A DNA stretch of 64,000 nt from Laetmonice hystrix. Its lineage: Eukaryota. Of the stretch, positions 3,283 through 33,500 are shown piece after piece. Made by a program: the position numbers and the translations under genes. The stretch covers positions 29,018,001 through 29,082,000 of the forward strand of contig OZ249436.1 in assembly GCA_965235115.1 (NCBI GenBank), written 5' to 3'. The notes beneath the pieces were generated by a model that was not told where the DNA came from, did no database searches, and worked only from the letters and a program-made list of their open reading frames with translations. Within the stretch, counting starts at the first letter, position 1. Every line of letters begins with the position of its first letter.

Positions 3283-3779
3283 CAGGGCTCTCAAAGTTGG
3301 CAGGAGTAGCAGGGTACAAAAGAGAAAGTAGCAGGGTACAGCCCTTGGGGGGGGGGGGTCTGGGGGCCCTCCCCCAGAAAAAAAATTAAAAAATGTCCCC
3401 CTGAGATACAATTTCCTGGCATCTGAGAGGGGCAATTGGGGGGTCCGGGGGCCCTCCCCCGGAAAAGTTTGAAAAAATACCCCCCTGAGATTGCAATTCC
3501 CTGGTCCCTGGCATCTGAGAGGGATAATTGGGTGGTCCGGGCCCCCCCCTGGAAAAATTTGAAAAAATGCCCCCCCTGAGATGCAATTTCCTGGCATCTG
3601 AGAGGGGCAATTGGTCATCACTGACATCGTAACGCACCGTGTGCGGATCCTACGTGCAGGAAAGTGAAAAAACATCATTATTACAAAGATTTTTTGTCAT
3701 TTAACTAAAAGTAGGCAGCAGCAAAACTGGTTTTAGACGGCGTTTTGCCGCCGCTGACTGGCTACTTTTGAGAGTCCTG
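3283..3779. mobile_element. CAGGG-ended MITE with 6-bp TSD and about three internal ~80-bp tandem units
   Basis: TIRs CAGGGCTCTCAAA / TTTGAGAGTCCTG; flanking TCAATA at 3277-3282 and 3780-3785; internal repeats GGGGTCCGGGGGCCCTCCCCCGGAAAA...CCCCTGAGATGCAATTTCCTGGCATCTGAGAGGG. Confidence 0.8.
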
Positions 3780-5617
3780 TCAATAGTGCACGTATTAAAC
3801 AATAACCATGCCATATCACTCTTTTTCTCTTTGATGTTTGCCCTGAAAGGGTACAAATAATCTTTACTACTTTACTAGGCATAGAAGGGCTAAGTATGTT
3901 TGCCCAGACTCATCCTTTAAATGTTAGGAATATACATGTAATTTTAAAATCCCAATTCACAATGTTGCAGCACTTGCTAATAGGCCATACTGAATAACTG
4001 CTCACTCAACCAAATGTGTTTACATTGAAATTGGTATAGTGGCATTGCTTAAGGGTACAGTAACTGCCCGACATGGTCCTCGTGACCCAAAAACATAATT
4101 TATTTATCCATCACTAGACTTCAGAGATGAAAGTAGATTTATGGGATACCAAGGCCAAGGATGACCAGTGTCAACTTTCAAGGATATGCATTTTGGTATG
4201 TATCCAATTTTTGAGGTCAGCTATGTTAGGGCCTAGACAGTTTCGTCCTTATGCAGTGAGAAAAAGGAAATGGAACCGTATATAATTTTAAAATCTGTCT
4301 GTTGACCCAATGTACCGGTACGTGCCTTGTATGATTGCAAATGATGCCAACCAGTGAGTCTGGATAGCCTTTTACTTAGGGTGGGGCACTCTGCAGATGC
4401 CAAACAATCAGCACAATGACCAAACACTACGGCCGTCTCTACTTTCATTCAAATTAAACTCTGCAGATACAAGGCCTAGGGCCTCATATATAAGTCAATA
4501 CCCTGACATCAGGGCCATGCGATAGTACTCGGGTGGTCTTTAGGCTAGTAGTGGGAGACCACGTCGACAGGGTTAAAGGGTTAGTCTTTTGTACCTGTGG
4601 CAAAGAGCCTGAAGGAGAACAATTTACTGGGGTACCCAATTTATTTCTATCAGACCGCTTAGTCTATGAGTAGGTCACTAGGTGCACAAACATTTAAATG
4701 GTTGCCCCAGGTTTTGAAAAGAAATCTTGAGTTCAGACAGAGTTTATGCATGAAGGTGGAGGTGATGGTTAGTCGTTTAGATTTAGAGAGTCAGAAGGGA
4801 CAGACTCCTGCGAGGAGCAGTTGTAAAACATCTCTGCACATGACAAGTTGACCTGTTTGAACTTACAGACTTGGTCACGTACACGTGTGCTAAGAAGCGT
4901 GAAAATCACCTCACTAGAGACAGGATCCATTGTGGCCTGTAATTATGGTCATCACTACTGAAATTTAGTCTTTCACTGTTGCACGACACTGTGACAAAGG
5001 ATGTATTCACGAGAGCTTGCATGCAATATGTTTGCTATGAGATAAAGATACCGAGTACCCCCGTATATCAGCGTAATGCAGATCTATGTAGCCAGAGAAG
5101 ACTACCTGCTTTCTACTCCTGGCTGAACCCAAGATTTCACTCAAATAAAACGGGGTTACACGGAGCTGTCATGATGACGTAAAGCTAAAAGTCAAAATGC
5201 TCTTTTTCAGCTTGATTTGATGTTGCAGTAGTGTACGTAGTGCCACTGGTACATCTCTGGTTATTAGGCAAGCTTACCATCATCGTTTGGAGGATTAATA
5301 ATTGCACTACCTAAGTTTCTCCATAAATGTTTTCCGAACCAGAGATTTCTAATTGTGGTTATAATCTGAAATTGAACTAACAGCGCCCATTCGACAAGCA
5401 GGTCTGTCTGTTTGTCTGTGTACTGTTACATAGTGTAGTGATAGAGGTAAAGTGCTGAGCACACAGTGCTGTATGTACCATTGCACTTTGTTGCTGCCAG
5501 GTGTTGATGGCTTGTACAGTTGACCATATGTAGATGGGCCAGCTTACCCCAAAGTGTTTGTATTATGGCTTTCAATATGGTGTTAGTAAAACTACAAAAA
5601 GATTTCCGCCAATGTTT

Positions 5618-5908
5618 GAAGCCTGGCAATATGCTCTGCAGAGTCTGATCTCACTGCGCCTCAAGTCATGGTGGTAGTACCTTTTCATACTTTGTCTGTT
5701 TAAAAGTTCCCACCAACATTTCATCACATTACTTGATTTGTATTGTGTACAGGCCTAGTCCACTGGCCCACCCAGCTGGCCGATTTTGATATGGTTGGCC
5801 GTGGTGGACAAAAATCAAGAATACATTGAATGCATTTTTAAAGGTATCTTGTTGTTACCCAGACTTGAGGCAATGAGACGGACTCTGCAGAGCATATTGC
5901 CAGGCTTC
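5618..5908. mobile_element. MITE with long terminal inverted repeats
   Basis: GAAGCCTGGCAATATGCTCTGCAGAGTC...GACTCTGCAGAGCATATTGCCAGGCTTC is a perfect 28-bp IR, extending imperfectly to about 50 bp. Confidence 0.75.
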
Positions 5909-8900
5909 CTGGATTGGCTGATTTAAAGTAAGCATATTATGTTTTAGAGAGATAATATTCGAATACATAAGATTATGTATCAATTGGGGATTTTTTATTT
6001 TAAGGACAATCATACCGTTGTCATGCCCAAATCGGCAGGCAGGCAGGCAGGTGTCGCCGTCTGTTTTTGCCGCTTGTCTGAGGTCTCTGGGAGATTAGAT
6101 GCAGAGTCGTGTGTATTTGTATAGTTCTTGTTAAACTCTCCGAAATATTATCAGGTCTAGATTGAGTCTCACATAATAAAATAACTCCTTTTTTCCTCCA
6201 TCAGTTTTGGTCCACAATTTGTTTATCCAGATTGTCGTTTGTTATTGTTTGGAAGAAAACTGCACCTCCCATCAGCTAGCAGACGACCAGAGGTGCGAGC
6301 TCAAAAGTTCTGCGACATGCGTGAGCTCACTTAGTCAGATTCTGCCTCTAAACAATAGGAAACAATGCACCCGGAGACTGCAGACCGACGGAGAAAACAG
6401 ACTGCGGCACCAGGCCAGTGGACAAGGCCCTTTCAAAACAACATAGAGAACAGATATCCAGAATAGTTTGGACTGAAGACCGGATATTTCCGAGTTCCTT
6501 TATCCTGGTGTAAAGTTATGTAAATATAAATTGATATATTTCAGCAGCTGTACATCTAGGCAAACACCTGGCTCTGGAAGCAGAACGTTTGCCCTCCTCC
6601 TTTGCCCACCTCTTGCAGATAGCAAGTGCTGGTGAGACAAAGGGAATGAGTGGGGTCCAGATGCTCTAGCATTATTGTCAACACAGGCAGAAGTTTGCAA
6701 TTCAAGGGCAGAAAGCATCTGTTGCCCTCAGTGCCTAACAAGACCCCTGCATGTGCATTCCCTGAGCATTGATTGACATTGCAACTCTCTGCCCCTGGTG
6801 TTTTAGTGGTGCCGCAGTCGGCATCCCTACGGGTGGTACAGCCGTGGCCTGCTCCGGACATGTACAGGTGGCAGTGGTAGATAACAAGAGTGTGGTAATG
6901 GACAGGACCACTACGGTTGTCGGTGCTGCCGCACACCTCTGTGCGCACCCATTGTGCCGTTTACGAGTGACTGCATAGGACGGTGGTGCGGAAGCGGTTG
7001 GCGGGAGTAGGTCCCTCGTTTATATTGATCTGCGAGGTGGCCAAGGGTGCAGAGCCCAGGGCAGAGTCCAGCAACAACAGCTCTTGCTGTATGTCATCAG
7101 CCAGTCGCCACCATCGGGAGACTGCTTACAATGAGTGGGACGGAATAGGTGAGTCAGGGCCGCGTGCCCACCTGGCCATGTGCCAGGTCGTGAACATAGA
7201 CACGCACATACTATACAGGGAATATCTATACGTGCAGTGTTCAGTCAAAGGGGGGAAATCATCATCACCTGTTACAGGTAAAGTCGCAGAAATATGTTCC
7301 AAGGTGTACGGTAATACGGAAACGGATGGTGAGGTCATATAACCAGGCAGCCATGTGTACACACTTGACCTCTGATCAGGAGACAGAAATAAGATAACAT
7401 AGGATTGCAGGCAGAATCGGCCTGTGACCAGGAACAACCCTGTGGCCAATCCAGGTGCTAGAGGTAGGGTGGTTTATGTTGACTCCAGAGATCAGGTAGG
7501 TAGGAATTCACCCTAGTGTCTCCTGGGTACCGTCTCCTGGCTTACATCACGTTGTCACCATGCTTGGAAGATGACACACATTATTATAGCCTATAGGCCA
7601 TGTGCATCAGTAGACACAAGCCAAAGCGTGAGGCTTGAGTCCAGCAAAGGTTGGTGCCGTCATTTTTGGCTTGGATTCTAACCTTTGCTTTGTATATAGC
7701 GCCCATGTGCAGTTAGAACGCAGTTACTATCGTGCAATCCTACTGGAGCTAGTGTTGAAGTAAACTTGTCAACGGGAGGTTCAAAACGCTATTAAGGAAG
7801 TCTGCAGGCGGGAATATTTTGTGAGTATTTTCAGGTCAGATGAGATTCGTCATACATTAGTTCTTGCTGAGGTTACTGTGTTGTAGACTGACAGATAAAT
7901 GATTGCCCTGGGGCAATGTAGGTCATGGCCACTGTGTTACAAATAGTCAGTAGGGACTAACAGGACAGGGATGTCCCGTACAGGACACTGGGGTTGGAAT
8001 CAGACGGACAGCCCCTATGCATGCCCCATAATGTCAACATTGAATGCACAGTAGAGGCTGAAAGGTTTAGAATAATGTAGTGCGGATGTCAGCCTGTGGA
8101 TTTGAGTGGTACATTGTAGTAGCAAAATGCACTGGTCAGTATTTGTCATGAAGCATTGCACCAGTTCTTTTTTTTTCTCCCCTGGCCCTGCCAAACCAGT
8201 TTGACTTTGAGGGACATGTAGCGGCCTTGTGCTGTCCGATGTGCCGTGGATGGCTGACCTGATGGTGGTGTTGTGGGACGGGGAGATGGATGCATGGTCT
8301 GATTGCCACTAGGCATGCAGGTCAGGGATCGGCGGCGGCACTGGGAGCTCACCCCCTAGCCCCCTGTCTCCATCCCCGGCACCCCCTTTCTCCTCGTCCC
8401 CGGCGACCCCGACCCACCATCATGGCTTGACTGGCGGCACTCACCCCCTGGACGGCTGTCCTCAGCCTCTGTAGCAGACATCCTCCTGACATGACCTGCT
8501 TCACAGATGATTGGGTCTGTCGAAAGGATCCATGGGAAGGTCCTTGCTACGACCCTCCCATGTTTTGGCTGGATGTGCCTGTCAACGTAATGATAATGAC
8601 AAAGTAATGATATCATATTGCCACTTGTAAACCACTATTGTGCCATCAGGAAAACCTTGTGTGTAATAACTAATATACATGCCAGCTCTGTATTTAACGG
8701 TGCAAGTGCTATCTGGCAGATCATGCGCATTTAAAGGTACCATGTACATTTCAATGATGTCCGGAAATCTGCAAGTGGAAATGGCAGAAGACATGCTGGT
8801 CTCTGGGGTGAATGTTCACTATTCTCTTACTACCTGTCTAAGAACCTATCTCTGAACTCAAATTTGTGCTGTAATTATTGAAATTTTATTGGAACAAAGG

Positions 8901-12689: not shown

Positions 12690-14272
12690 TTATTGGATGT
12701 GATGCTGTAAGATAATATAAAATCTGTTAAAGAATAAACAATAACATCAAGTATCTGCTAGGATTTTACCCCATTCCACATACGACAGGACTTTTATGTG
12801 GGCGGTGGATGCAGTCATATAGTCCGACTCCAAGGTAAGGAGTCAAAGCAAGGAGTCAAAGTTGCCAGAAAGCGTGAGCAGACTGGCCAGTAGCTTGCTC
12901 CTAAGGTCGGTTGTACTCATTCCTCTGCAGTCAGTCATCTGCCACTTCATTGTTTAAAATTTGATTCTCTCCTAGAGTGCTTCCTGGTCATTGGTTGACT
13001 TTAATTGTGACCAAAACGTGAGCTTTAAAGGTACATGTAATTTGTGACAATTTGTCTGACAACCACCGGTATCCTATGTGCGGATAGAACTCAGATAGAA
13101 CCCTATTGTTTTAACGTTTTGCAGGTTTGATTGATGTTTGATTAAACATACATGGGTTATGTATACCAGTCATGTAAATATCAGTAGTGTTGTTTCCAAG
13201 ATAGCTGTGAAGTATTGTTAGCAATCTAGGGGCCAAGCTTTGTGTGTTTTAGCAATCTTTTGGGAGGTCAAGCAATGTATACTTTAACTTAAAGTTGAAA
13301 TGACACCTCTGTGTTGAGATTAACTTTGTGTACCAAATGTGTATATTTTTGTGGTAAACTCCTTTCGTATTAGAGACAAAAAAGGGCACCAGTCTGAAAA
13401 GAATAGAATCTTCAATCTCTGGATAGAAATGATGTTTGAGGTTGTAAAAGCATTTTTGATTACCGTGATAATTTAAGGAATTAAATTGGAGAATTAAATT
13501 ATTTGGTTCATTTTGTTTTTTACCGGAAATCAAATCTTAGAATTTAGGATTGTCTAGAAGATGAACTGAGAGGAGTCGGTATGTAATGCTAATGAAAATG
13601 TACAGGGAAAATAGAAGATGTGGTCCTCCCCGTTGTGGATTCTTGTCCTGTGAAAGTATTCCCATCCCATCGTGAACTCTGTCCACTGGTCGATAAACAC
13701 TGGACGCCAGTGTGGTGAAAACAATAGGTGTAATATGTCCTGATGTAAGGTCATGACATAGCAAATCAATCCTGGCAGAGGGTGGACTTCAGCTGGCAAA
13801 ACAGTGCAAAACACACAGAGTTGTGTATTTGGAAGACCTGTGTGTGTGGGGGGTGAATGCACTATCAGTTATTATTACACACTACCACTATTTACATTCT
13901 AATAATGACAAGGGGTACGACAGAACCCCCCCAACCCCCAACCCCCACCACCACACTCTCTTCCATTCTCATAGTGACCAGGGGTCCGACGCCGGTCCAC
14001 TCCGACTGTGAAGGTGATGTCACCTGTTACGTGAACCGCCTATAAATAGTTCTATTCATAGCCATCAAGAGAACATAATCTTAACACAGTATCATATAAA
14101 TATAGACATATCCAAGGATGATTTCTATCGAGAGGGTTCATCTGAAGCCAGACATGCCTCAAGCATTTTTTAGAACAATGGCAACAATAGAAGAGGAGAA
14201 AACGGAAACCGCGGTTCACATACCTGGCAAAATATGTGTACATGTTGAATTGATTATTTGGATTAATGCCTG

Positions 14273-14967
14273 TTTGGTATGTGGTGCGGTGGTGTTGCAC
14301 CCCAACTGTCCAAAATTAAACACTCCGTGGTTGATAGTCTTCCATTCCTTTATTTCACACTCCAGTCCCGCTCCTACACGTCTGGTCAGTTCGGTGACCC
14401 GGGAGCAAGAGACCGCCAAAAACCTCCCAGCGACGCTCATTAAGCTGATTAGCATAGGGCCAACTGGGTTAATTTTCTTAAGCGGACAACCTTTTTCTGT
14501 TTACAAGATGGAATCTTTTAAGTTACACAATACAACCCTTCTATATAGAGTCTCACTAATAAATACCGTTTTATACTGAAAATATAGATAATAAAATATA
14601 TGTACTGACGCCAAGCTTATCTGTTGAAGCCCGCGCTCATCCGCTCATTAATTATGCAAAGCCAAAATGTTCTCCAAACTCTACTTCTAGGTTGAAATCT
14701 AATATGAGAGAAATGACATGATAATCCCTGCACATGTAATTAATATGTGAGGTAAATCGTCTTGTCTCTATTCTTAATTTAGAGAATATGAAATAGCTAT
14801 ATTTAAATTAACATATGACCGTTAGTGCATAACATTAACCCAACGCCAGCTACGTACAGGAGCAGTCCTCCGGAGTGCTGGGTAGGACAAACATGGCTGC
14901 CTCGGCCTTGTATGACGCTAATTAATTATTACCACATGTGGGCTACCTAAATGTGGGGGGTACCATA
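14273..14967 (-). repeat. 3' LTR
   Basis: No difference seen by eye from 21559-22253; core TGGTA...TACCA at 14275-14965; minus-strand AATAAA at 14349-14354. Confidence 0.97.
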
Positions 14968-14969
14968 TA

Positions 14970-14980
14970 TCCCCGCGGCC
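14970..14980 (-). other. Polypurine-tract-like site (short, imperfect)
   Basis: Minus strand GGCCGCGGGGA just upstream of the 3' LTR. Confidence 0.5.
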
Positions 14981-16317
14981 TGAAGAAGTTTGCTCCGTTC
15001 AAACCTTCAAAAACAATATTCGACCAGGTTTGGTCTAAGACGTTGGATGAAAGTATAACATCTTGGAACAAGATACCTAACCAAACTGAAAACATTTTCT
15101 ACAAGAGTAATTATACATGATGTATATATAGTAGTACATATCATAAGCTACGTTGTATTCCGGTTTGTCCTGGAAAAAGTTTTTACGAATATGGTGGTCT
15201 ACCTAAATAATATGGTCGTGCCTTTTTGCTCTCAAATGTTCATTAGTCCACATAATATTCGAGCTTGCCACGACATCTTAGAAAGTAACTCGTGAATTGT
15301 GGTACTGTCACACACAAAAGTTCATCGTAAAGAGATATGTCCGTCGGTGTCCTGAAGAGTTCGACTAAAACACTTGCGCCTGGCAACGCCTCACACATAT
15401 GAAACTGCCGACTTGTCCAAGGTAACCTAGATGTTACCGTCGTTGTCCTTTGTCACACGTGTACATGTGCAGTAGTAGGGTTACAGCTAGATAAAGCTAA
15501 ACAACATAAAAGAAACCTAGAGCTAACTCTGGCAAGCGCTGTAGCTATCAGATATAAATGTCATCGTGAGGATGTGTCCGTAACTGTCATCTGATCAGCT
15601 GTAAATGTTCATATATGTAGTAAAGTATATAGCATGCTTTAAGTATATATGTCATGCGTGAGTGCCACAAGTCTATATTGCAAGACACTCTATACTCCCA
15701 CACAGCAAAAGAAAACAAACGTCAATCAACTGGGCCACAAAACCTTGGTATTCATTACCATAAGAAAACCAGCACTATGATTATGTGCACAAACGCAGTA
15801 AACCTTATGAAACCTTTACCTATAACTGTATACATGTAACCTGTAAGTATGTGAGTAGTGAGAATGTCTCATTGAACAGTCTGTATGAGACTGATTTGTA
15901 CATGTTAACACTGAATCATGGCTGCCTGTGTAATGGAGACCATTCACCTTTAGTATAATGGCAAGGTGGCTAACTTAACAGCACGTCCAACAGATAGTAA
16001 CCAACGCACATATTGCTAGGATCAAAGCTAACCCGAATAGTAAGTGAACATAATGTTAAATGGAGGCTGGATTGCAGTGCGCGCGGACTAGGCCAGCTAA
16101 TCCCTGCCCCGTACCAATAAATGACTGCATGATAATGAGATCAGACTCAACTTGATACATACAACATGATACCATGACACCTTGTCGAAACGGCTGTGCC
16201 ATATATAATTTGCTTATAGAGCCAACATAGATTAGTGAGAGACATGCAAACGAGTTCTGCTTGTATTCTGCCAGTCACGGTGATTGGGCTTTAGATACGG
16301 TATGTGAGGGTAATATA

Positions 16318-19300
16318 TTAAGTACGTGGCTTGGTGAAAAATGACGGGTTTCGTGTGTGTTTCTTGGAGGTACCCTTCATTGTCTTCGTTTTATGGAAGT
16401 GTTCGCGTATATGGTCTGGAATATCCTCCTTCCATACCCAAGGTTTATATTTCTGACCTTGAATCGAGACTTTATAATATAGTCTGTGATTTTGTCTCAC
16501 TGCTTTCTCAATTCCTGTGATTTTTCTTGGAGGTTTTGCAGTGTGTCCATCATCGCTTACATCGTGGCTGAGATGGTCGGTGCTTGTTGACGGCTCTGCC
16601 TCTCCGTCCGCATCCTCGGTGGGGGGTGCTGTCTCGCTATCATGTCCAGCTGGGTCATCAGGCGGTGGCGGAAAGTTGTCAGGTTGCAGGTCGCCTGTAT
16701 CAGCCTCCGTATCGCCCCCCTGTTGGGACGGCTGAGAGTCGGGCGTGGTGTCATCATCGCTGTCATCACTTGTGGTTTTGGGGTCCTCATCGTCATGCTG
16801 TCTCTCCACGAAAGCAGACATGCGGTTTGCATGGATGAGGCGGGTCAGGACCTTACCTGTCCCATCTTCTAATCTATATGTATTGTGGGGACCCACATCA
16901 ATAACCTTGAAAGGGCCCTTGTAAGGTGGGAATAACTTCGGCACCAACCCCACGGGAACGGCAGGGTTTGACATGAGAATTTTGTCTCCAACGTGGAATT
17001 GTTTATCTCTGGCCTTTTTATCATAGGATGTTTTGTAACGCTCCTGGTTTTTGTTGACGTTTTGTTCAGCAATTTCCTTGAACACTTTAAGGTTTGTTAT
17101 GAGATTGTTGAGATGTTGTTGGACCCCCTCCGGTAATGACTTTTTCGGAAGTAGGTCAACATCTGATGGTGTGACCATGGTGCGGCCAAATACGAGTTGA
17201 TAAGGAGATAATCCTGTGGAGCGAGTAGCTGGTGTAGAGCGGTATGCCATCATGATACCTGGTAATTTGATGGGCCAGTCATTTTGGTCCTTGTCACAGT
17301 AGGCTTTAACGCTCTGGATGATAAAGCTGTTCATACGCTCGCATGTAGCATTCGTCTGAGGGTGGTATGGAGATGTGAACTTCTGCTTTGCTCCACCAAG
17401 CGCACACACTGCACGGACGAGCTTTGAAGTGAACTGTCGCCCTAAGTCTGAGACTATTTCTTTGGGTGTCCCATACCTTGTGAAGATCTCCCTGTACAGG
17501 ATTTCAGCGACTGTCTTGGCGTCTTGTGATTTAGTTGGTATGGCTTCACACCATCTTGAAAAGCTGTCCACTATTAGCAATATGTACTTGTATCCCTCAG
17601 GTGTTTCCTTCATACATAGAAAATCCATATGCCATCTCTCAAACACTGGAACTATTGGCATGGGCGTCAAGAAAGCTGGTTTCCTGTTCTGATGTTTTAC
17701 CTTTTGACACGTCTCACAGCTCTTCACGTACTCTTCCACTGTCTTGTACAACCCCGGCCAGTGAGCCCTGAGTGATATGGCTGCAAAGGTCCGGTCGATG
17801 CCCTGGTGGCCGCCCCCCATTAGGTTATCATGGTGACTTGCAATGAGGGCGCGCTGCTGGCATTTAGGCATTAGAAGTTGTTTAATCATCAGGGCGGGCC
17901 TTCTCCTGTTACCGGGAAATGTGATATGGTGTAACAGGCCATCCTCATCGATGATGTACTGGTCTTGCGTGCGACAGATGATGTTGGCTAGTCTGTTGTC
18001 TTTGGGTAAGATGTTGTCGTGATGGAAGTCGTAGAATGGTTTTATGAGTGGACATTGCTTTTGTAGTTGTACCATATCCGGGGGGTCGATACAGGAAATT
18101 TCAACTGTGCTATGACTGTCCGTGTCTGTCTGCTGGGATGGTGCTGTCTGTGACGCCTCACTGAATGGTATTCTCGATAGAGAATCTGCATTGGAGTTTG
18201 ACTTCCCGGATTTGTACACAGTTTCGAAGTTGTAGTTCTGAAGGAATAGGGCCCACCTTCCAAGTCTACCACTATCTGGACGAAAGCTGGCCGCATACTT
18301 TAATGGTTTATGATCTGTGTATACAGTGAATGGCTTGTCTGCGAGGTAGGGGTGGTATGCCTGAATACCTTCCTTGATGGCAAGGTACTCTAGCTCTGAT
18401 ACTGTGTATCTCGTCTCTGGACCACGTAGAGCGCGTCCACCATATGCAATAACATGTTCATGGCCCGATTCGTCCTTCTGCCCTAATATATACGCCAAAC
18501 CGGAGGTTGAAGCGTCCGTCGTGAGATAGAAACGTTTGGACATATCAGGATACCGTAGAATGGGGTCGTGTACAAGCCTTTCCTTTAAATAGATGAATGC
18601 CTCCTGGCATTGGGTACACCACACGAAAGAAACTCCTTTCCGAAGTAGCTTGAACAGAGGTGCTGCGATTTTGCTGTAATCCTGGACGAATCGCTTGTAA
18701 TAATTCGTTAATCCGAGAAAAGCACGGACCTGCTTCTCATCCCTCGGAACAGGAAAATTGTCTATTATGGCCGTCTTCTCCGGGTTAGGACGGACACCGT
18801 CTGCTGACAGTATGTGTCCAAGGTATTTCACTTCCTTGGCAGCGAACCGGCATTTTGATGGCTTTAACTTTAATCCTGCCTTTGAAATGGACTTGAAAAT
18901 TTTCTTGAGATGGACCAAATGTTCCTGCATATTTCTGGAGTATATAACTATGTCATCGACGTAAATTACACAAAATTGAAATAAATGTTCACGGAGTATT
19001 TCATGCATAGCACGTGTGAATGTCACTGGGCTATTAGTAAGGCCAAACGGTAGAACTTTCCATTGGAACTGGCCGTTTTGTGTCACGAATGCCGTTTTAT
19101 GTACTGACTCGGGGTCCATCTTTAATTGTGTGAATCCATTTGAAAAATCAAGGACACTAAATATTGAGGCCTTCTTTTCACCGATGGCATCCCACACATC
19201 CTCCAGTCGAGGAAGTGGGAACGACTGTGGGCGGGTTACTGCATTGAGTTTCCTGTAGTCACAGCACATTCTCCAGGAACCGTCTGGTTTCTTGACTAGC

Positions 19301-20409
19301 ACCACTGGAGCACGCCATTCCGACGTCGATGGTTCAATCAAGCCGAGCTCCAAATTCTCCTGTACCTGGCGATCAATTTCGGCCCTTTTCTCCGGTGATG
19401 CCCTGTAAAATCGCTGTGATACCGCCTTTGCGCCTTGAGTGTCTATGGTGTGTGTGACTATAGATGAGAAACCCAACTCTGATTTATCTTTGGCAAAAAC
19501 ATGACGATTTTCCTTTAAAAACTTCGTAAGTGCCAACCTGTCAGGTTCATCAATATTGTCATTATCGATCTCAACATCAATATCACCAACTGGCTCCATG
19601 GAACATACATCTTCTACCTCTGGTTCCCACATACTTGCAATGTCAGACCCGGAAATAATCTGAGCATGAGCTAAAGTGAAGTGTGATGGCAAAGTTATAG
19701 TGGTGTCAGTCGAGTTAATAACGCGACAGCATGTTCTGGAACCACATACATACACTAAGGTAGGTGTCACGATCACACCGCTGAGTTCACTCTGCCTTGT
19801 TGGTTTTAACAACAACTCTGCATTACAGTACTCTTTGGAACATTTGACAGGAAGTATCATCTCACTCCTGGCTGGAATCAGCGTTGAACACAATGTCCGG
19901 GCTAGGGATGACCTCGCCGCTGGGGTTGTTAGCTGGATATTTCCACCCTTAAGTTTGAGTTGGTTTACACCAAAGTCTACCACGGCTGACTGAGACTGTA
20001 GAAAATCAACGCCAAGTATGACACTATGGTGACCCTTAATGACATGAAACGCGTGTGTTACTCTGACAGAGTTTATCCAGAATTCTACCTCCAGTTTGTC
20101 TGTGACCTGGTGCACTTCACCACCAACACCCCTAACCATGTCAAAATCTGGTTTTAGAACTCTACACATTGGTCGCACCTTGTTGGCTAACTCGCTGGAC
20201 AATACACTAATATTAGCACCTGAATCAATGAGTGCCCATACACGGGTGTTACCTATACGGATTTGTAGCTGGTTGTTATACACTCTAGTATCTGTCACCA
20301 TTACTTCTGCGATGGACATCTTAGACAGTTGAGTGCTACCTGAACTAACATGAACCTGCTCAACCTCACCACAGTGCCTGTCCAGATCTCTCCGGGCAGG
20401 CTCACACCC
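16318..20409 (-). CDS. pol: Pol polyprotein: aspartic protease, reverse transcriptase, RNase H, integrase (HHCC, DDE, GPY/F), chromo-like tail
   Basis: ALIDSGA (PR), LPFGLTNSP and YVDD (RT), LTTDAS (RH), H..H..CETC, WHMDF/VSDLG/CERMN (IN), YKGPF; frame is open from the gag stop at 20410, first ATG at 20319. Confidence 0.97.
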   Translation of the reverse strand, partial: GCEPARRDLDRHCGEVEQVHVSSGSTQLSKMSIAEVMVTDTRVYNNQLQIRIGNTRVWALIDSGANISVLSSELANKVRPMCRVLKPDFDMVRGVGGEVHQVTDKLEVEFWINSVRVTHAFHVIKGHHSVILGVDFLQSQSAVVDFGVNQLKLKGGNIQLTTPAARSSLARTLCSTLIPARSEMILPVKCSKEYCNAELLLKPTRQSELSGVIVTPTLVYVCGSRTCCRVINSTDTTITLPSHFTLAHAQIISGSDIASMWEPEVEDVCSMEPVGDIDVEIDNDNIDEPDRLALTKFLKENRHVFAKDKSELGFSSIVTHTIDTQGAKAVSQRFYRASPEKRAEIDRQVQENLELGLIEPSTSEWRAPVVLVKKPDGSWRMCCDYRKLNAVTRPQSFPLPRLEDVWDAIGEKKASIFSVLDFSNGFTQLKMDPESVHKTAFVTQNGQFQWKVLPFGLTNSPVTFTRAMHEILREHLFQFCVIYVDDIVIYSRNMQEHLVHLKKIFKSISKAGLKLKPSKCRFAAKEVKYLGHILSADGVRPNPEKTAIIDNFPVPRDEKQVRAFLGLTNYYKRFVQDYSKIAAPLFKLLRKGVSFVWCTQCQEAFIYLKERLVHDPILRYPDMSKRFYLTTDASTSGLAYILGQKDESGHEHVIAYGGRALRGPETRYTVSELEYLAIKEGIQAYHPYLADKPFTVYTDHKPLKYAASFRPDSGRLGRWALFLQNYNFETVYKSGKSNSNADSLSRIPFSEASQTAPSQQTDTDSHSTVEISCIDPPDMVQLQKQCPLIKPFYDFHHDNILPKDNRLANIICRTQDQYIIDEDGLLHHITFPGNRRRPALMIKQLLMPKCQQRALIASHHDNLMGGGHQGIDRTFAAISLRAHWPGLYKTVEEYVKSCETCQKVKHQNRKPAFLTPMPIVPVFERWHMDFLCMKETPEGYKYILLIVDSFSRWCEAIPTKSQDAKTVAEILYREIFTRYGTPKEIVSDLGRQFTSKLVRAVCALGGAKQKFTSPYHPQTNATCERMNSFIIQSVKAYCDKDQNDWPIKLPGIMMAYRSTPATRSTGLSPYQLVFGRTMVTPSDVDLLPKKSLPEGVQQHLNNLITNLKVFKEIAEQNVNKNQERYKTSYDKKARDKQFHVGDKILMSNPAVPVGLVPKLFPPYKGPFKVIDVGPHNTYRLEDGTGKVLTRLIHANRMSAFVERQHDDEDPKTTSDDSDDDTTPDSQPSQQGGDTEADTGDLQPDNFPPPPDDPAGHDSETAPPTEDADGEAEPSTSTDHLSHDVSDDGHTAKPPRKITGIEKAVRQNHRLYYKVSIQGQKYKPWVWKEDIPDHIREHFHKTKTMKGTSKKHTRNPSFFTKPRT

Positions 20410-21489
20410 CTAAAAATTACTTGGACGTTGCTGCACCTGTGAAAGGCGGGGCTGATCCGCCAACCTCTTTAAACAAACATTTGCCCAGTGATTGCGTTTG
20501 CTGCAGTAGGAGCATAGAGCACCGTATGCCTTGCAATTGAACCTATTGTGGCACTCACCTCCTCCGCAGCCTCGGCATGGGCTGGTGGCCTGATGATGCT
20601 GTCCCTGTCCGGTGGCTGGGCGCTGATGATACGGTTGGCGCGGACCCCCTGCACGCCACACACCAGGCCTGCTGACCGCGTGGTTGAAACTTGATGCCCC
20701 ACGTGGCTGGTTCCGTTGGAAGGGGGGGTTGATGGGGGGTGGACGCGGGGAAGGCGGGACCTGATTTCCCGCGCTGGCCGCCATGACGCGTCCCTCCAGG
20801 CTGGCGATGGTTGCGTTTTGCATCTGGAGCATGTCGATTAACTGTTGATATTGGGAAGCCTCGATAGAATGTGTGGTGGCAGCTTGAATCTCTCCACGCC
20901 CCACTGGCGTGTCGAGGAGATCTTGGATGGAGGTGGCATTGTTTGGCAGCATGGCCCGGACTGCAGGCTGAACATTGTTGAGAACAATGGCCACGAGAGT
21001 GTCCTCCGATAGTCCGATATGTTTCCCCTCTCGCCGGATCTCTCTGATGTACGTCTTGAGGTCCTCCCGTGCCGTCTGTTTCCTTGATCGGAGAGCGTTC
21101 TCCGCCTCCCATTTTCGAGCGGCCTTAGGTCGGTATTCCTCCAGGAGGGCGGCCCTTAGTAATCCATAATTGTTCTTTGTCCCTCGGGGTAGGTGGACGA
21201 ACCAGTCCGCGGCCACTGCTGAGTCAAGATACATGGGCAGCATGTCCGCTAACTTGGCCTGGTCAGTCCATCCACGTGCCCGGGCGTGGATGTCGAATTG
21301 AGCCAGCCAGGTTGTGACATTGGTCGACTCCGTAAAAGCCGGCATCCTATCTGGTGTCTCCATGGATTTCATCCTCTCGTTGAGTGTATTAATAGATGCC
21401 TCCATGGCTGATCTTGACTGTTGCTGCTTGCCTCCCGAGGACCGTAGATTATGAGCGGGACCGAGGGTATAGTCTACACCCTGGCTCAT
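20410..21489 (-). CDS. gag: Gag-like protein (359 aa from the first ATG after the PBS)
   Basis: Capsid-like core (WLAQFDIHARARGW..., RKQTAREDLKTY) and C-terminal CSYCSKRNHWANVC CCHC knuckle preceded by a second Cys/His motif; start chosen downstream of the LTR and PBS. Confidence 0.9.
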   Translation of the reverse strand: MSQGVDYTLGPAHNLRSSGGKQQQSRSAMEASINTLNERMKSMETPDRMPAFTESTNVTTWLAQFDIHARARGWTDQAKLADMLPMYLDSAVAADWFVHLPRGTKNNYGLLRAALLEEYRPKAARKWEAENALRSRKQTAREDLKTYIREIRREGKHIGLSEDTLVAIVLNNVQPAVRAMLPNNATSIQDLLDTPVGRGEIQAATTHSIEASQYQQLIDMLQMQNATIASLEGRVMAASAGNQVPPSPRPPPINPPFQRNQPRGASSFNHAVSRPGVWRAGGPRQPYHQRPATGQGQHHQATSPCRGCGGGECHNRFNCKAYGALCSYCSKRNHWANVCLKRLADQPRLSQVQQRPSNF

Positions 21490-21538
21490 GAAGTGTGAGA
21501 TGGATGTGCACGATGCCAGAGGTACCAAACTTTGAAGA

Positions 21539-21556
21539 TCATGGGTTCTCTCACCA
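21539..21556 (-). other. Primer-binding site (primer not identified)
   Basis: Minus strand TGGTGAGAGAACCCATGA begins 2 nt after the 5' LTR; TGG start is complementary to tRNA CCA. Confidence 0.7.
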
Positions 21557-21558
21557 TT

Positions 21559-22253
21559 TTTGGTATGTGGTGCGGTGGTGTTGCACCCCAACTGTCCAAA
21601 ATTAAACACTCCGTGGTTGATAGTCTTCCATTCCTTTATTTCACACTCCAGTCCCGCTCCTACACGTCTGGTCAGTTCGGTGACCCGGGAGCAAGAGACC
21701 GCCAAAAACCTCCCAGCGACGCTCATTAAGCTGATTAGCATAGGGCCAACTGGGTTAATTTTCTTAAGCGGACAACCTTTTTCTGTTTACAAGATGGAAT
21801 CTTTTAAGTTACACAATACAACCCTTCTATATAGAGTCTCACTAATAAATACCGTTTTATACTGAAAATATAGATAATAAAATATATGTACTGACGCCAA
21901 GCTTATCTGTTGAAGCCCGCGCTCATCCGCTCATTAATTATGCAAAGCCAAAATGTTCTCCAAACTCTACTTCTAGGTTGAAATCTAATATGAGAGAAAT
22001 GACATGATAATCCCTGCACATGTAATTAATATGTGAGGTAAATCGTCTTGTCTCTATTCTTAATTTAGAGAATATGAAATAGCTATATTTAAATTAACAT
22101 ATGACCGTTAGTGCATAACATTAACCCAACGCCAGCTACGTACAGGAGCAGTCCTCCGGAGTGCTGGGTAGGACAAACATGGCTGCCTCGGCCTTGTATG
22201 ACGCTAATTAATTATTACCACATGTGGGCTACCTAAATGTGGGGGGTACCATA
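21559..22253 (-). repeat. 5' LTR
   Basis: Direct repeat of 14273-14967; minus-strand TATA-like TATATAGAAG at 21824-21833. Confidence 0.97.
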
Positions 22254-23941
22254 CCTGCATTGGTGAGTACCACGGGACATCTGAAAATATATTTTCAAAA
22301 AAGTGGATCTTCTACTTTGGAGTCTGGTTGCAGTTTTCACTGGCTACAATGTTCATAGCATTAGACGCTGGAAAGAAACTTCATGTAAGAATATCAAGGA
22401 TGAAATGTAAACGTTGAGTGTGAAGTTTTGTTGCAACATCTGTTATAAAATCTGATTTTGATCCCTCATAGCGTGATACATGCTACCCTCATGGCATGAT
22501 ACATACATCTACAGATCTACAAGAGGTTTCTCAGCAGTCCGGTTGTGAACGCAGATTTTGAAAAGGACTGTTTTATTTTAGCATAAAGCTGTTGTAAAAT
22601 GTTTATCGTCATAGGCCCCTAGAACTGTTATGTTCCTGAGTATTCTTAAACGCAAAGCCTTAATATTGGTGACAGTTAATTCTTTAAAGAGTGGCTTCTA
22701 ACTGGTGTCGGTTGATGGAAAGACTTTAAATGTCAGTCCGTCTGCAAAGTAGATGTTCTTGGCTGAGATAGACAGAGTTGCTGATTTAGAGCCGTTTCTA
22801 ACTTCAAGCAAGTGATATGCCACCACCGCAACTAGCCTAATTTGTTGTGTACAACCATAAGGTTTGCGACCAAGGCATACATGTGTATAATATTATGTTT
22901 GACATTCGAGGAAAAGATATGTGAATATTTTAATAGTTATTCTAAGTTGGATTGATTTCGTACAGGTCTACATGTCTCAAGCTGTGTGTACAACAATTGC
23001 TTGCGAGTTTGTCGAGGTTACTGTTACGGTAACTTACCCATCTTCGTCATTTAAATCGTTTATTTATACCAGTTTAATTAAGCCTAATTTGGCGGTACTC
23101 CCTTTACTGGTACTTCGTGATTAGAGTCATCTTCTGCGAATCCTAGATTGTAGAAAAACAATGCTGTGACCAACAAAAAAGTAGTGTAGTAAGATTCATT
23201 GGGTAGGAATAGGGGTGTTGTGATCTGGCTGCCCCATACTAGTTTGTATTCACAACATTCGTTAATGGTCTAAAATCTTAGTACACTGCAAAATGAATGG
23301 CATGAATTATTAGTCTCATTCCAAAGCAGCAATCATGCTTTTTTTTAAAGTACTGTTATTCATAGAATTGGAATCCTGCCAGGAGTATCTCAAGCTTAAC
23401 GAGCAGAGTTTGCCATTGCATTTTCTAATAGCTTTTTCTATCCTAATAAAATGTGTACAGGAGGCGAAGGGCCAATAAAAACAAATAATTAACTCGACCC
23501 AAAAATGTAAACGTGTTCTCAGCTCAACCAGTTGTCTTTACAACAGTAAAATAATATCTTTTGTAAATTAGGTATGAATTTAAATACCGAATTAACTTAG
23601 TTGTTCTTTCAAAAAAAAATTGTAATTGCAATAGATCTATCAATCGCATAATTTGGTATCTCTGTTTGTAGATTGTTACCGTATGTAACTGAAAAACGTA
23701 TAAGCCATTAATTCCCATCGTCATGACATGTGGTCTCAGATGTAGATGACCTCATTGACCAGAAAATAATGGGTAAAATATATTGATCAACAAAAGACAG
23801 TTTATATGCAAATGCTGCATGAGGAAAAGGCAGTTCATGGTTTAAATGACAAGGGATTCTTCCAATGTATTAATCTTATAATTAATAGTATGTTTTGGAG
23901 TCAGTCATATGTCCAGGCCTCGGAAAAATCTTACCAAAGAA

Positions 23942-27571: not shown

Positions 27572-30500
27572 GTGAGTCGTTGTCGCCGAACACCTGGCAT
27601 CTGGAGGAAAACTCAAATCAAAGTGTCCAGATGCTTGTAGAACAAGAAACAGCCCTCTTTTTTTTTTCATCTCGGTTATAACGTGATTGATATCTTCTAG
27701 AAATATTTAGTACTCTGATAATTTCGTGTGCAAAATGTTGATAATTTTTTATTTGTTTGCCATTCAGTTTTGGTCAAACATTCTTGGTGGCCAGTAAACA
27801 ACTAGACACGTTGTGGCGATACCACAATTGATCCCATCCCCGGGGAGTCACGTGATATATGACTTCCTATTCCTGTTCAATAGTAACCATGGCTCAATCT
27901 TTCGCCGTTTACGAGTTGGAGGCTTAGGAAAATAATGTTAATATCATTATAATCTCATACGTCATGATCCTGCTTTCATGCAGGCTCAGATCCAGTACCG
28001 CAAGAAAGGAGGGGCACCAAAGGTGCAAGGCGAACATGGGCGCGGGGGGGGGGGGGGGGGGGGGGGGGGCTTGAATTTAGAAAGTCAAAGAACGTTACTT
28101 CTGGAGCTAGATGTGAAGTTTCTCAAAGTATTTCAGGCGCATGTAGGGGTCCGGGGGTTGGACCCCCTCTCCTGCTCCCCCAGAGCATAGATTCATTTTT
28201 CCTTAGATTCAGCGGGACACCATCGAACGAACAGGTGCAAAGCATTCTGCCTATTTTAAACTGGTTGAGTGATGAATAGGCCTACACAAAATATAGTGCA
28301 CTAAATGGGTCCATAAAAGGCTTCTAATTTAAAAAAAACAACATTTCGGCGACCACCCTGCTGAAAATCCTAGATACGTGGCTGTATTTAGACCTAGCCT
28401 AACAATAATGTCAATTCTTTAAAAAGAAAGAGTGCAGATACGCCCCTGACATGTCGAAAGGGATCATAGAGATCTACTGCATGGTATATCTACCTATTTT
28501 GATATATTAATCATTGTGGAAGGATACATTAAAATCGTAATTATATCTAGAGACTCTGATTGCCAAGCAATACAGGCAGGTCCCATTTCCCGAATGGTTT
28601 TCTATCATTACCTATATTTTTCTCTCATTTAATTATTGTCCCAACAATAGCGTCATTTCCATTCACATGGAAGTTACTAAGTATTCTTTTGACATTATGA
28701 AATATTATAGTCCTGATGGATTATATGGATTATACCCGTTACGGGCATCATGAAAAATATCACAGACTCAAGAACAATAGGTGCGAATGCCATCCACACC
28801 AGGCTGTTGGCTCACGCTGAAACCAAGTGCAGCTGGCCAAAAGTTTGCCGTGTCTCTTGAACTCCACAGCCAACAATCAGTAGTAGCCTAGTGTTTTATT
28901 CAGCTCTCCTATGTAAGATTGAAAAACAAATGCATTAGACAGTTATATCTACAGTTCAAAGGCACAGCTAATTCAGTTATGTCAGTTCTGAATACACAAT
29001 CATCCTCCACCAAACCGACCCTGACTGGGAGGGAGGGGGCGGAGTCACAACCCGCCTGCCGACCCGGCCGCCTGGCCGGCCCTTATCACCAGCGCTTACG
29101 TAACCCTCTGCCGACCCTGGCTCTGGCCTCCCAGCAGGTGATTTGTGTATTCAGAGATGCCACCTGTCAGAGTGTAAAAATATTATAGTGAAGACTATAC
29201 CCATTAAAACTTACAATTCTGGCCATATTACCTTTCCAAAACAAGAACTAAACAGTCAGTGGTATACCTGAATCTATACACTTTGTAATTGTTGTATTTG
29301 TATATGGCTATCTTAAACAGGTTTAAGGTAGAGCCTGTCAACGTCGGATTACATTATTTCATCATAAATAAAAAAGATATTGGTAAATTTATGAAAAGAA
29401 ATATGCAAAGTGACCAATCGTCAATAGCAGCACATATCTAGTGACCAAATACACGATTCCTATATGACTAAATCAGTTTTAGAAAAAAATGTCAAAAGTG
29501 ACAAACTTTAAAGTCACGTGGTTCGGCGAAAATAGGTCAAATCGCTAATCCTTGGAATCGTATTGTGAACCTTTCGTTAGAGAGTGTTTTTGCCGAATAT
29601 TGTCGAATTTTACCAAAAAATAGAGAAGGAGAAGCAATTTAACCGATTTGTGACCAATGACCCAGTTCACCCTAAGGTCAAAGGTCAAAGGTCAAATCAA
29701 GACTCAAATTGAGGCAGCACCTTTGGCCGATTATGAGGGCATGACGGGTTTTTAAAAAAAATTCCCAATATGAGCTTAAAAATGGCTTCAATTTTCATAA
29801 TACGTTTGACGTCATCACGTCATGACGTGACGTTACATGACGTCAGGATTCGATGCCTGACCATACTTTGTCATTGTCAAGATGTGTGCCAAATTTCATT
29901 TTGATATTTTGAAAATTGACTGAGATAGACATACAAGTTTACTACTACTACTACTACAACTACGACGCCAAAAACTAGACACGTTGTGGCGATACCACAA
30001 TTGATCCCATCCCCGGGGAGTCACGTGATATATGACTTCCTATTCCTGTTCAATAGTAACCATGGCTCAATCTTTCACCGTTTACGAGTTGGAGGCTTAG
30101 GAAAATAATGTTAATATCATTATAATCTCATACGTCATGATCCTGCTTTCATGCAGGCTCAGATCCAGTACCGCGAACATGGGCGCGGGGGGGGGGGGGG
30201 GACTTGAATTTAGAAAGTCAAAGAACGTTACTTCTGGAGCTAGATGTGAAGTTTCTCAAAGTATTTCAGGCGCATGTAGGGGTCCGGGGGTTGGACCCCC
30301 TCTCCTGCTCCCCCAGAGCATAGATTCATTTTTCCTTAGATTCAGCGGGACACCATCGAACGAACAGGTGCAAAGCATTCTGCCTATTTTAAACTGGTTG
30401 AGTGATGAATAGGCCTACACAAAATATAGTGCACTAAATGGGTCCATAAAAGGCTTCTAATTTAAAAAAAAAACATTTCGGCGACCACCCTGCTGAAAAT

Positions 30501-33500
30501 CCTAGATACGTGGCTGTATTTAGACCTAGCCTAAAAATAATGTCAATTCTTTAAAAAGAAAGAGTGCAGATACGCCCCTGACATGTCGAAAGGGATCATA
30601 GAGATCTACTGCATGGTATATCTACCTATTTTGATATATTAATCATTGTGGAAAGATACATTAAAATCGTAATTATATCTAGAGACTCTGATTGCCAAGC
30701 AATACAGGTAGGTCCCATTTCCCGAATGGTTTTCTATCATTACCTATATTTTTCTCTCATTTAATTATTGTCCCAACAATAGCGTCATTTCCATTCACAT
30801 GGAAGTTACTAAGTATTCTTTTGACATTATGAAATATTATAGTCCTGATGGATTATATGGATTATACCCGTTACGGGCATCATGACAAATATCACAGACT
30901 CAAGAACAATAGGTGCGAATGCCATCCACACCAGGCTGTTGGCTCACGCTGAAACCAAGTGCAGCTGGCCAAAAGTTTGCCGTGTCTCTTGAACTCCACA
31001 GCCAACAATCAGTAGTAGCCTAGTGTTTTATTCAGCTCTCCTATGTAAGATTTAAAAACAAATGCATTAGACAGTTATATCTACAGTTCAAAGGCACAGC
31101 TAATTCAGTTATGTCAGTTCTGAATACACAATCATCCTCCACCAAACCGACCCTGACTGGGAGGGAGGGGGCGGAGTCACAACCCGCCTGCCGACCCGGC
31201 CGCCTGGCCGGCCCTTATCACCAGCGCTTACGTAACCCTCTGCCGACCCTGGCTCTGGCCTCCCAGCAGGTGATTTGTGTATTCAGAGATGCCACCTGTC
31301 AGAGTGTAAAAATATTATAGTGAAGACTATACCCATTAAAACTTACAATTCTGGCCATATTACCTTTCCAAAACAAGAACTAAACAGTCAGTGGTATACC
31401 TGAATCTATACACTTTGTAATTGTTGTATTTGTATATGGCTATCTTAAACAGGTTTAAGGTAGAGCCTGTCAACGTCAGATTACATTATTTCATCATAAA
31501 TAAAAAAAATATTGGTAAATTTATGAAAAGAAATATGCAAAGTGACCAATCGTCAATAGCAGCACATATCTAGTGACCAAATACACGATTCCTATATGAC
31601 TAAAGCAGTTTTAGAAAAAAATGTCAAAAGTGACAAACTTCAAAGTCACGTGGTTCGGCGAAAATAGGTCAAATCGCTAATCCTTGGAATCGTATTGTGA
31701 ACCTTTCGTTAGAGAGTGTTTTTGCCGAATATTGTCGAATTTTACCAAATAATAGAGAAGGAGAAGCAATTTAACCGATTTGTGACCAATGACCCAGTTC
31801 ACCCTAAGGTCAAAGGTCAAAGGTCAAATCAAGACTTAAATTGAGGCAGCACCTTTGGCCGATTATGAGGGCATGACGGGTTTTTAAAAAAAATTCCCAA
31901 TATGAGCTTAAAAATGGCTTCAATTTTCATAATACGTTTGACGTCATCACGTCATGACGTGACGTTACATGACGTCAGGATTCGATGCCTGACCATACTT
32001 TGTCATTGTCAAGATGTGTGCCAAATTTCATTTTGATATTTTGAAAATTGACTGAGATAGACATACAAGTTTACTACTACTACTACTACTACTACTACAA
32101 CTACGACGCCAAAAACTAGACACGTTGTGGCGATACCACAATTGATCCCATCCCCGGGGAGTCACGTGATATATGACTTCCTATTCCTGTTCAATAGTAA
32201 CCATGGCTCAATCTTTCACCGTTTACGAGTTGGAGGCTTAGGAAAATAATGTTAATATCATTATAATCTCATACGTCATGATCCTGCTTTCATGCAGGCT
32301 CAGATCCAGTACCGCGAACATGGGCGCGGGGGGGGGGACTTGAATTTAGAAAGTCAAAGAACGTTACTTCTGGAGCTAGATGTGAAGTTTCTCAAAGTAT
32401 TTCAGGCGCATGTAGGGGTCCGGGGGTTGGACCCCCTCTCCTGCTCCCCCAGAGCATAGATTCATTTTTCCTTAGATTCAGCGGGACACCATCGAACGAA
32501 CAGGTGCAAAGCATTCTGCCTATTTTAAACTGGTTGAGTGATGAATAGGCCTACACAAAATATAGTGCACTAAATGGGTCCATAAAAGGCTTCTAATTTA
32601 AAAAAAACCATTTCGGCGACCACCCTGCTGAAAATCCTAGATACGTGGCTGTATTTAGACCTAGCCTAAAAATAATGTCAATTCTTTAAAAAGAAAGAGT
32701 GCAGATACGCCCCTGACATGTCGAAAGGGATCATAGAGATCTACTGCATGGTATATCTACCTATTTTGATATATTAATCATTGTGGAAAGATACATTAAA
32801 ATCGTAATTATATCTAGAGACTCTGATTGCCAAGCAATACAGGTAGGTCCCATTTCCCGAATGGTTTTCTATCATTACCTATATTTTTCTCTCATTTAAT
32901 TATTGTCCCAACAATAGCGTCATTTCCATTCACATGGAAGTTACTAAGTATTCTTTTGACATTATGAAATATTATAGTCCTGATGGATTATATGGATTAT
33001 ACCCGTTACGGGCATCATGACAAATATCACAGACTCAAGAACAATAGGTGCGAATGCCATCCACACCAGGCTGTTGGCTCACGCTGAAACCAAGTGCAGC
33101 TGGCCAAAAGTTTGCCGTGTCTCTTGAACTCCACAGCCAACAATCAGTAGTAGCCTAGTGTTTTATTCAGCTCTCCTATGTAAGATTTAAAAACAAATGC
33201 ATTAGACAGTTATATCTACAGTTCAAAGGCACAGCTAATTCAGTTATGTCAGTTCTGAATACACAATCATCCTCCACCAAACCGACCCTGACTGGGAGGG
33301 AGGGGGCGGAGTCACAACCCGCCTGCCGACCCGGCCGCCTGGCCGGCCCTTATCACCAGCGCTTACGTAACCCTCTGCCGACCCTGGCTCTGGCCTCCCA
33401 GCAGGTGATTTGTGTATTCAGAGATGCCACCTGTCAGAGTGTAAAAATATTATAGTGAAGACTATACCCATTAAAACTTACAATTCTGGCCATATTACCT

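Follow-up and report, generated by a model that had tools for sequence, protein, structure and literature searches.

A Gypsy long terminal repeat retrotransposon of Laetmonice hystrix with TA...AA termini, most likely a family trait

INTRODUCTION

A terminal CA is treated as near-invariant for the DNA ends used by retroviral-type integrases, and the removal of two bases from the 3' ends before joining is established in retroviruses (PMC12789967, PMC6784120). Gypsy retrotransposons have the end consensus TGTTRNR...YNYAACA (PMC3601003). Among the closest described systems, elements of the CsRN1 clade (CsRn1, PwRn1 and AgCR) end in TGT...AAA or TGT...ATA and make 4-bp duplications (PMC2582038), with a clade motif of TGTGGYG...MSYYAMA (PMC3601003). 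In plants, the departures from TG...CA include TARE1 (TA...CA), AtRE1 (TA...TA), Tos17 (TG...GA) and the types found in lotus (10.1101/137141, PMC9804982, PMC5659011, PMC3701649), and in animals the Zam-clade errantiviruses end in AGTTA...TAAYT (PMC3601003). A Gypsy clade with chromodomains, some of whose members carry env, has been described from Cnidaria, Mollusca and Annelida (PMC13524379). Here we describe one intact Gypsy long terminal repeat (LTR) retrotransposon, at 14273-22253 on the minus strand of a 64,000-nucleotide (nt) stretch of Laetmonice hystrix DNA (contig OZ249436.1, positions 29,018,001 to 29,082,000; the whole stretch is called the window). Its ends read TA...AA and lie just outside an intact TG...CA.

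RESULTS

Termini and target site duplication

The two LTRs of the element are each 695 bp long and 100% identical, and the identity breaks off exactly at 14272/21558 on one side and 14968/22254 on the other. In the element sense the ends are TATGGTA...TACCAAA, flanked directly by CCTG on both sides. The features at and near the ends are as follows.

14269..14272, no strand: left copy of the target site duplication, CCTG, from comparison of the flanks
14273..14967, minus strand: 3' LTR, 695 bp, TATGGTA...TACCAAA in the element sense, from its identity to the 5' LTR
14273..14274, minus strand: host-joined AA at the U5 terminus, outside the inner CA (14275-14276); from the duplication and the contig forks at the matching 21559
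14968..14969, minus strand: 2-nt TA spacer from the purine tract to the true LTR start
14970..14980, minus strand: putative weak polypurine tract ending in GGGGA, assigned by its position
21539..21556, minus strand: primer binding site, first letters TGGTGAGAG, from the sequence
21557..21558, minus strand: 2-nt AA spacer from the true LTR end to the primer binding site
21559..22253, minus strand: 5' LTR, 695 bp, with AATAAA at LTR position 614 and TATA-like boxes at 393 and 421
22252..22253, minus strand: host-joined TA at the U3 terminus, outside the inner TG (22250-22251); from the duplication, the X2 contig end at 22253 and the flank contig matches from 22254
22254..22257, no strand: right copy of the target site duplication, CCTG, from comparison of the flanks

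The original prediction, made from the letters of the window, was that no duplication flanks TGGTA...TACCA, that two extra nucleotides on each side are common to both LTRs, and that a perfect CCTG duplication lies beyond these. All of this was borne out. With each end offset by -4 to +4, CCTG at offset 0/0 is the sole 4-, 5- or 6-bp duplication, so none adjoins the inner TG or CA, and the LTR identity spans exactly 14273-14967 and 21559-22253. With host composition, the chance of a 4-mer duplication is p ~0.0045, and that of finding host TT on one side together with TA on the other is p ~0.006. The spacing had been described correctly as well: the TGG of the primer binding site begins 4 nt past the inner CA, which is 2 nt past the true end, and GGGGA stops 4 nt before the inner TG, which is 2 nt before the true start. 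No third LTR copy is present in the window. A script that prefers TG/CA ends placed a false end 5-6 nt away for this element, which supports the further claim that LTR finders requiring TG..CA would mis-call the family.

Assembly contigs fork at the same ends

Three public runs (X1-X3) of a single sample contain 0.77-0.79 of all words in 13300-23200. Their contigs were aligned over 20200-23000, and the figures given here rest on the 24 pieces listed among 222. Relative to the flank, depth in the element was 10.6-fold, 13.4-fold and 11.3-fold in the three runs; this is a ratio of depths and not a copy number, and it suggests about ten copies in the sample. LTR contigs begin exactly at 21559 in all three runs, and internal contigs stop at 21588 in two of the three. 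The two kinds overlap by 30 nt, and the assembly graph therefore forks just outside the terminal TT (AA in the element sense), provided that the collection was built from words of 31 letters, as we take it to have been. Divergence of the retained copies at TG would give a contig start at 21561, so the start at 21559 speaks for TT in the family.

On the U3 side, the X2 LTR contig ends exactly at 22253, at a depth of 611 versus 27 in the flank; the piece listed for X1 ends earlier, at 22238, and X3 has none there. Single-copy flank contigs match from exactly 22254 in all three runs, after 366, 368 and 594 other letters. The preceding letters themselves are not displayed, and these contigs are probably the empty allele, without TA before CCTG. 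An empty site free of the extra dinucleotide had been predicted, and a match that begins at 22254 and not at 22252 indicates that this is probably so. A preference of an element with canonical ends for TT/TA targets was considered and rejected: it yields no duplication, and the probable empty allele lacks TA.

What could be seen directly is a single insertion, read base by base. The extra dinucleotides might then reflect a one-off aberrant integration of a TG...CA family, or be host-derived, the more so as the letters of the other junctions and of the empty allele are not displayed and assembly clean-up can prune branches. However, the forks fall at 21559 (three of three runs) and 22253 (X2), not at 21561 and 22251, the flank matches from 22254 and not 22252, and a chance match of both dinucleotides has the low probability given above; we regard this account as highly improbable. 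Because the contigs fork exactly at the ends of the window copy and the probable empty allele lacks TA, TA...AA is most likely a family trait, with one copy read directly and the rest from contig forks. On the same footing the family falls into the descriptive class of non-TGCA LTR retrotransposons, and the predicted joined ends, CAAA-3' and CATA-3', are supported by the position of the duplication and by the forks.

As a separate observation at 21557-21558, internal contigs run unbroken leftwards from 21588 in two of the three runs; seemingly, therefore, the terminal TT is not adjoined by a T in any retained insertion, which hints weakly at a target preference.

Control loci and clade relatives

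For controls we used loci related to the window element, 36 of which, including the window, have an LTR-like pair. Twelve touched a contig end; among the 23 others besides the window, 8 had no duplication, one (L130) was dropped for an end picked beyond the repeat and the lack of a primer binding site, and 14, from 13 families, were kept. These 14, all more distant Gypsy loci, have a duplication adjoining TG...CA, of 4 bp in 13. They start with TGT (12) or TGC (2) and end with ACA (13) or GCA (1); a TGG start or a CCA end occurs in none. TAT...AAA departs from TGT...ACA solely at the second base of each end, with positions 1 and 3 kept.

The distance from CA to the primer binding site in the controls is 1 nt (6 loci), 2 nt (5) or 3 nt (3) and never 4 nt; in the window element it is 2 nt from the true end and 4 nt from the inner CA. 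The G run lies 3-7 nt from the start in controls, and in the window element 3 nt from the true start and 5 nt from the inner TG. One control, L100, has GGGGATA directly before TGT, and the window element has GGGGATA before TAT.

A reverse transcriptase (RT) tree of 251 sequences placed the window element in a 108-member clade (support 1.0), with 143 sequences outside. The nearest relatives are nine proteins (P0001-P0009) with 62-84% RT identity. Six loci from genome contigs also group in the clade, at up to 51% RT identity, and none of the six has a visible target site duplication. Two loci whose 5' or junction sequence could be used, L289 and L291, came from further searches in the same genomes. 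L289, which was assigned to the clade on similarity alone, has a CA followed by a 3-nt spacer. Among the clade loci, L080 reads purine tract-AT-TG and TCACA-AT-TGG, that is, an inner CA followed by 4 nt and TGG, as in the window element, with CA as the outer pair. L084 also ends in TCACA, an inner CA and then CA, followed by an A-rich spacer of 5 nt. No duplication was seen in L080, L084 or L289.

We consider it probable that TA...AA derives from a TGT...ACA-type terminus through substitution of the second base at either end, with trimming in its normal register. Several points favor such substitutions: the primer binding site spacer is 2 nt from the true ends, within the range of the TG...CA controls; the true ends fit TGT...ACA at positions 1 and 3, and the inner TGG...CCA matches no control; L080 and L084 show an outer CA past an inner CA, L080 in the same layout; and each single change has published precedent, in TARE1 and in the CsRN1 clade. 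The original prediction took the inner TG/CA as canonical and the cleavage register as shifted; in view of the primer geometry and the control termini, this is not supported as the likeliest account.

The integrase residue at the Gly218 position

The window integrase has the motif YHPQTNATCER at pol residues 1015-1025, which aligns with YHPQSSGKVER of foamy virus and HPQTDGQSER of Ty3. Most Gypsy and retroviral integrases carry a Gly ahead of the catalytic Glu; the window integrase has Ala there. The motif was found in 79 of the 108 clade members, with A or S at this position in 75 and G in 4, versus 56 of the 143 sequences outside, with G in 53 and R in 3; all 10 controls in which it was found (of 14) have G. 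The protein set was gathered with the window integrase as query, and the clade is over-sampled in these counts. We presume that Gly218 directly contacts the G paired to the conserved C. In the foamy-virus intasome, Pro214-Gly218 intrude at the DNA end (PMC6784120). The clade-wide change from Gly to Ala or Ser may loosen the need for the C of CA. It would be at most permissive and not sufficient, because L080 and L289 have Ser and seem to keep CA.

Mechanism, and the case for a shifted register

In the proposed mechanism, minus-strand DNA would start right after the CCA of the primer, leaving the U5 end with two bases beyond the joined end, and these would be trimmed. The substitutions would have occurred at the internal LTR junctions on the primer binding site and polypurine tract sides, where they would be carried in the RNA and inherited by each new copy, as in the model for TARE1 (PMC3701649). 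Integrase would pass over the inner CA, reading the terminal A and the sub-terminal inverted repeat; it would trim about two bases in the normal register, no longer needing the C of CA, and join WA-3' ends with a 4-bp stagger. Ala or Ser at the Gly218 position is a candidate for what loosens the requirement for C.

The original prediction had the complementary DNA (cDNA) carry 4-nt extensions, of which 2 nt are trimmed. For U5 the trimming is reasonable if the primer ends in CCA, and for U3 the figure of 4 nt is not set by the sequence, depending as it does on where the polypurine tract is cut. That same latitude, together with a primer that has no assigned tRNA, leaves room for a cDNA with only two bases past the inner CA at each end, joined without 3' processing; foamy virus does join an unprocessed U3 end (PMC6784120). 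We think this quite unlikely, as U5 would need a primer extended beyond CCA and a 2-nt spacer from the true end is the ordinary layout for trimmed ends.

Several observations weigh against the substitution account. Both spacers repeat the terminal dinucleotide (AA-AA and TA-TA), as slippage would leave, and the 5-nt A-rich spacer of L084 indicates that spacer growth occurs in the clade. Eight of the 23 non-window loci gave no duplication and one was dropped, and the script that chose the control ends prefers TG/CA, with 12 of the 14 controls having a single candidate. The direction of change rests on relatives at ~50% identity without a visible duplication. The cDNA ends are deduced from the letters. 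Finally, as for the integrase residue, an apparent CA end goes together with Ser in L080 and L289, and four clade proteins keep G.

Some of these observations would suit a true register shift, in which the element originally ended at the inner TG...CA, slippage in the A run and the TA repeat lengthened each spacer by two bases, and an integrase counting two bases from the DNA end came to join further out. Such a shift would also account for an inner inverted repeat, TGGTA...TACCA, that is perfect over 5 bp while the outer two bases are inverted imperfectly, and it would fit a clade integrase that differs at the end-contacting glycine. It has to contend, however, with the absence of TGG...CCA ends from all 14 controls, the two matched insertions it requires, and the outer CA in the same layout in L080. 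Moreover, a 4-nt spacer from CA to the primer binding site is by itself no proof of shifted ends, because the L092/L093 family, outside the clade, has such a spacer, and an LTR with ATAT adjoining TG and CA; a long spacer can thus accompany joining at CA in the ordinary way. We hold the register shift to be unlikely. We give an equally low probability to its broader form, that an invertebrate Gypsy integrase lineage without the end-contacting Gly sets its cut by distance from the DNA end and not by CA, with, in this family, a heritable two-base outward shift past an intact CA on either side.

Coding region and candidate readthrough signal

Both gag and pol of the element are open and in the same frame, parted by one TAG.

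16318..20409, minus strand: pol, 1363 aa open, with protease, RT, RNase H and integrase, from domain search and open reading frame
20376..20401, minus strand: predicted hairpin beginning 8 nt past the gag stop, a candidate readthrough signal
20410..20412, minus strand: single in-frame TAG dividing gag and pol
20413..21489, minus strand: gag, 359 aa, with a C-terminal Cys/His knuckle

The order protease, RT, RNase H, integrase is that of Gypsy (Metaviridae), and direct LTRs, primer binding site, polypurine tract and a duplication in the 4-6-bp range are all present; TG...CA termini, usual in Gypsy and not obligatory, are replaced by TA...AA. The integrase carries GPF/Y, and its chromodomain-like tail has no Pfam match, while many relatives match PF00385. 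Gag has no Pfam match at E 0.001, and its knuckle reads CX2CX4HX4C. There is no env, as no long open reading frame lies between pol and the 3' LTR. The element appears to be a recent insertion of an apparently recently active family.

In gammaretroviruses, readthrough of the gag stop relies on a layout of stop, spacer and downstream fold. Downstream of the TAG, the window element has GGG, then 8 nt of spacer and the hairpin (z -2.1 and -1.4 for two lengths). TAG-GGGT, a spacer and a GCCT-led stem are kept in three of five relatives (L084:2401-2450, L088:1589-1640 and L291:4360-4419; z -3.5, -3.8 and -1.9); in L080, TAG-G is kept and no strong fold forms, and in L289 the stop is TGA and there is no fold. 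In the hairpin alignment 85% of cells are paired, and at two pairs both partners change. The covariation was not above shuffles (171 of 500 reached the score), and it beat all slid controls. By analogy, we propose that the hairpin is a candidate signal for gammaretrovirus-like readthrough in this clade of invertebrate Gypsy elements. Tj1 requires an in-frame gag stop (PMC4600332). A second family in this sample has contigs that match the element at 20375-20412 only, 38 bases comprising the stop and the sequence after it, with dissimilar sequence on either side.

The primer binding site at 21539-21556 is of an unusual type, TGGTG plus one extra base plus GAGAAC, putatively tRNA-Ala-like with a bulge. 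The type is shared with the distant relative L080 (at 4662) and with polychaete elements tabulated in PMC13524379, without an exact tRNA match there. In the part of supplement 1 of that paper covered here, the window site matches no row, the nearest rows being two-mismatch tRNA assignments.

Further observations in relatives and in the window

Some clade relatives have a long open reading frame after pol (L080:975-3368, L088:6439-8865 and L090:4202-6697), which the window element lacks; that of L080 matches Baculo_F (E 9e-13). A site resembling a primer binding site at L088:405-450 precedes the gag start by 33 nt and has no CA in the 20 nt ahead of it, and L088 may be another clade member whose end is not CA; as the site is putative, we did not count it as evidence.

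Searches of viral contigs for close relatives returned nothing or one distant locus, and a metagenome scan (2 of 64 parts) only distant elements. The primer binding site pattern had 99 matches, none beside a pol relative, and in the relatives' genomes it occurred at chance level. Five bacterial metagenome bins (G001-G005) are rich in animal-type Gypsy elements, with 129 integrase matches in 9 Mb in G002, the genome of L083; these are probably mis-binned host DNA.

Elsewhere in the window, a DENND4-like exon lies at 46790-47278 (closest proteins molluscan, 60-67% identity), by which the host would probably be a lophotrochozoan, and 27797-34244 holds three tandem copies of a ~2.13-2.17-kb unit that are 97-98% identical. 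A 144-bp imperfect palindrome stands at 1695-1838, a short tandem repeat region at 3353-3614, and a pair of 63-bp inverted repeats ~200 bp apart, resembling a miniature inverted-repeat transposable element, at 5605-5921.

DISCUSSION

The family most likely joins non-CA ends on both sides with an intact CA two bases inside, and it thereby offers a clean natural substrate on which to ask if an integrase goes by sequence or by distance; Ala or Ser at the Gly218 position is the candidate residue accompanying this substrate. Annotation that looks first for TG/CA likely mis-places the ends of such animal elements. Were distance-based cutting true, TG/CA-based annotation would be overlooking many further families in this clade.

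The existence of ends other than TG/CA is well documented and limits the surprise; TA...AA at both ends of an animal Gypsy element is a variant on them. It is not among the eight lotus Copia end types or the other plant examples covered in the cited passages (PMC9804982, PMC5659011, 10.1101/137141). We found no published description of TA...AA ends, in a weak search that missed a paper printing TA...TA and did not include Repbase or the LTR_retriever supplement. The sole text match, in PMC11656987, was part of longer tetramers.

Several described groups share features with the window element. The chromodomain Gypsy clade of PMC13524379 may be the same as the window clade, to judge by features: relatives of the window element carry chromodomains, L080 a Baculo_F env, and polychaete members of the published clade list L080-like primer binding site types. 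In contrast, the window element has no env. The passages of that paper that were searched hold nothing on LTR termini or duplications. Troyka and the Zam clade are likewise animal LTR elements with both ends lacking TG/CA (PMC3601003, PMC12440569). However, Zam-type errantiviruses have AGT...AYT ends and an env (PMC3601003), of which the window element has neither, and Troyka has CG...CG ends, a 3-bp duplication and no GPF/Y (PMC12440569), whereas the window element has TA...AA, 4 bp and GPF/Y.

The plant non-TGCA elements keep the first T and the last A and change the inner base, include a TA start, and are missed by TG/CA finders (PMC9804982, PMC5659011), all as here, and for TARE1 inheritance is through mutation at an internal LTR junction (PMC3701649), as we propose for the window family. 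Almost all of them are Copia, in contrast to this animal Gypsy element. The CsRN1 clade differs from the window element in lacking CA at the U5 end only, where here both ends lack it. By features, not phylogeny, its Gag signature CX2HX9CX3C (CHCC) is absent from the window Gag, and its primer binding site (tRNA-Trp, TGGTGAG/C) shares the first 7 nt with that of the window element and then differs. Like the window element, the clade belongs to Gypsy, makes a 4-bp duplication and has the same joined 3' trinucleotides, AAA and ATA (PMC2582038).

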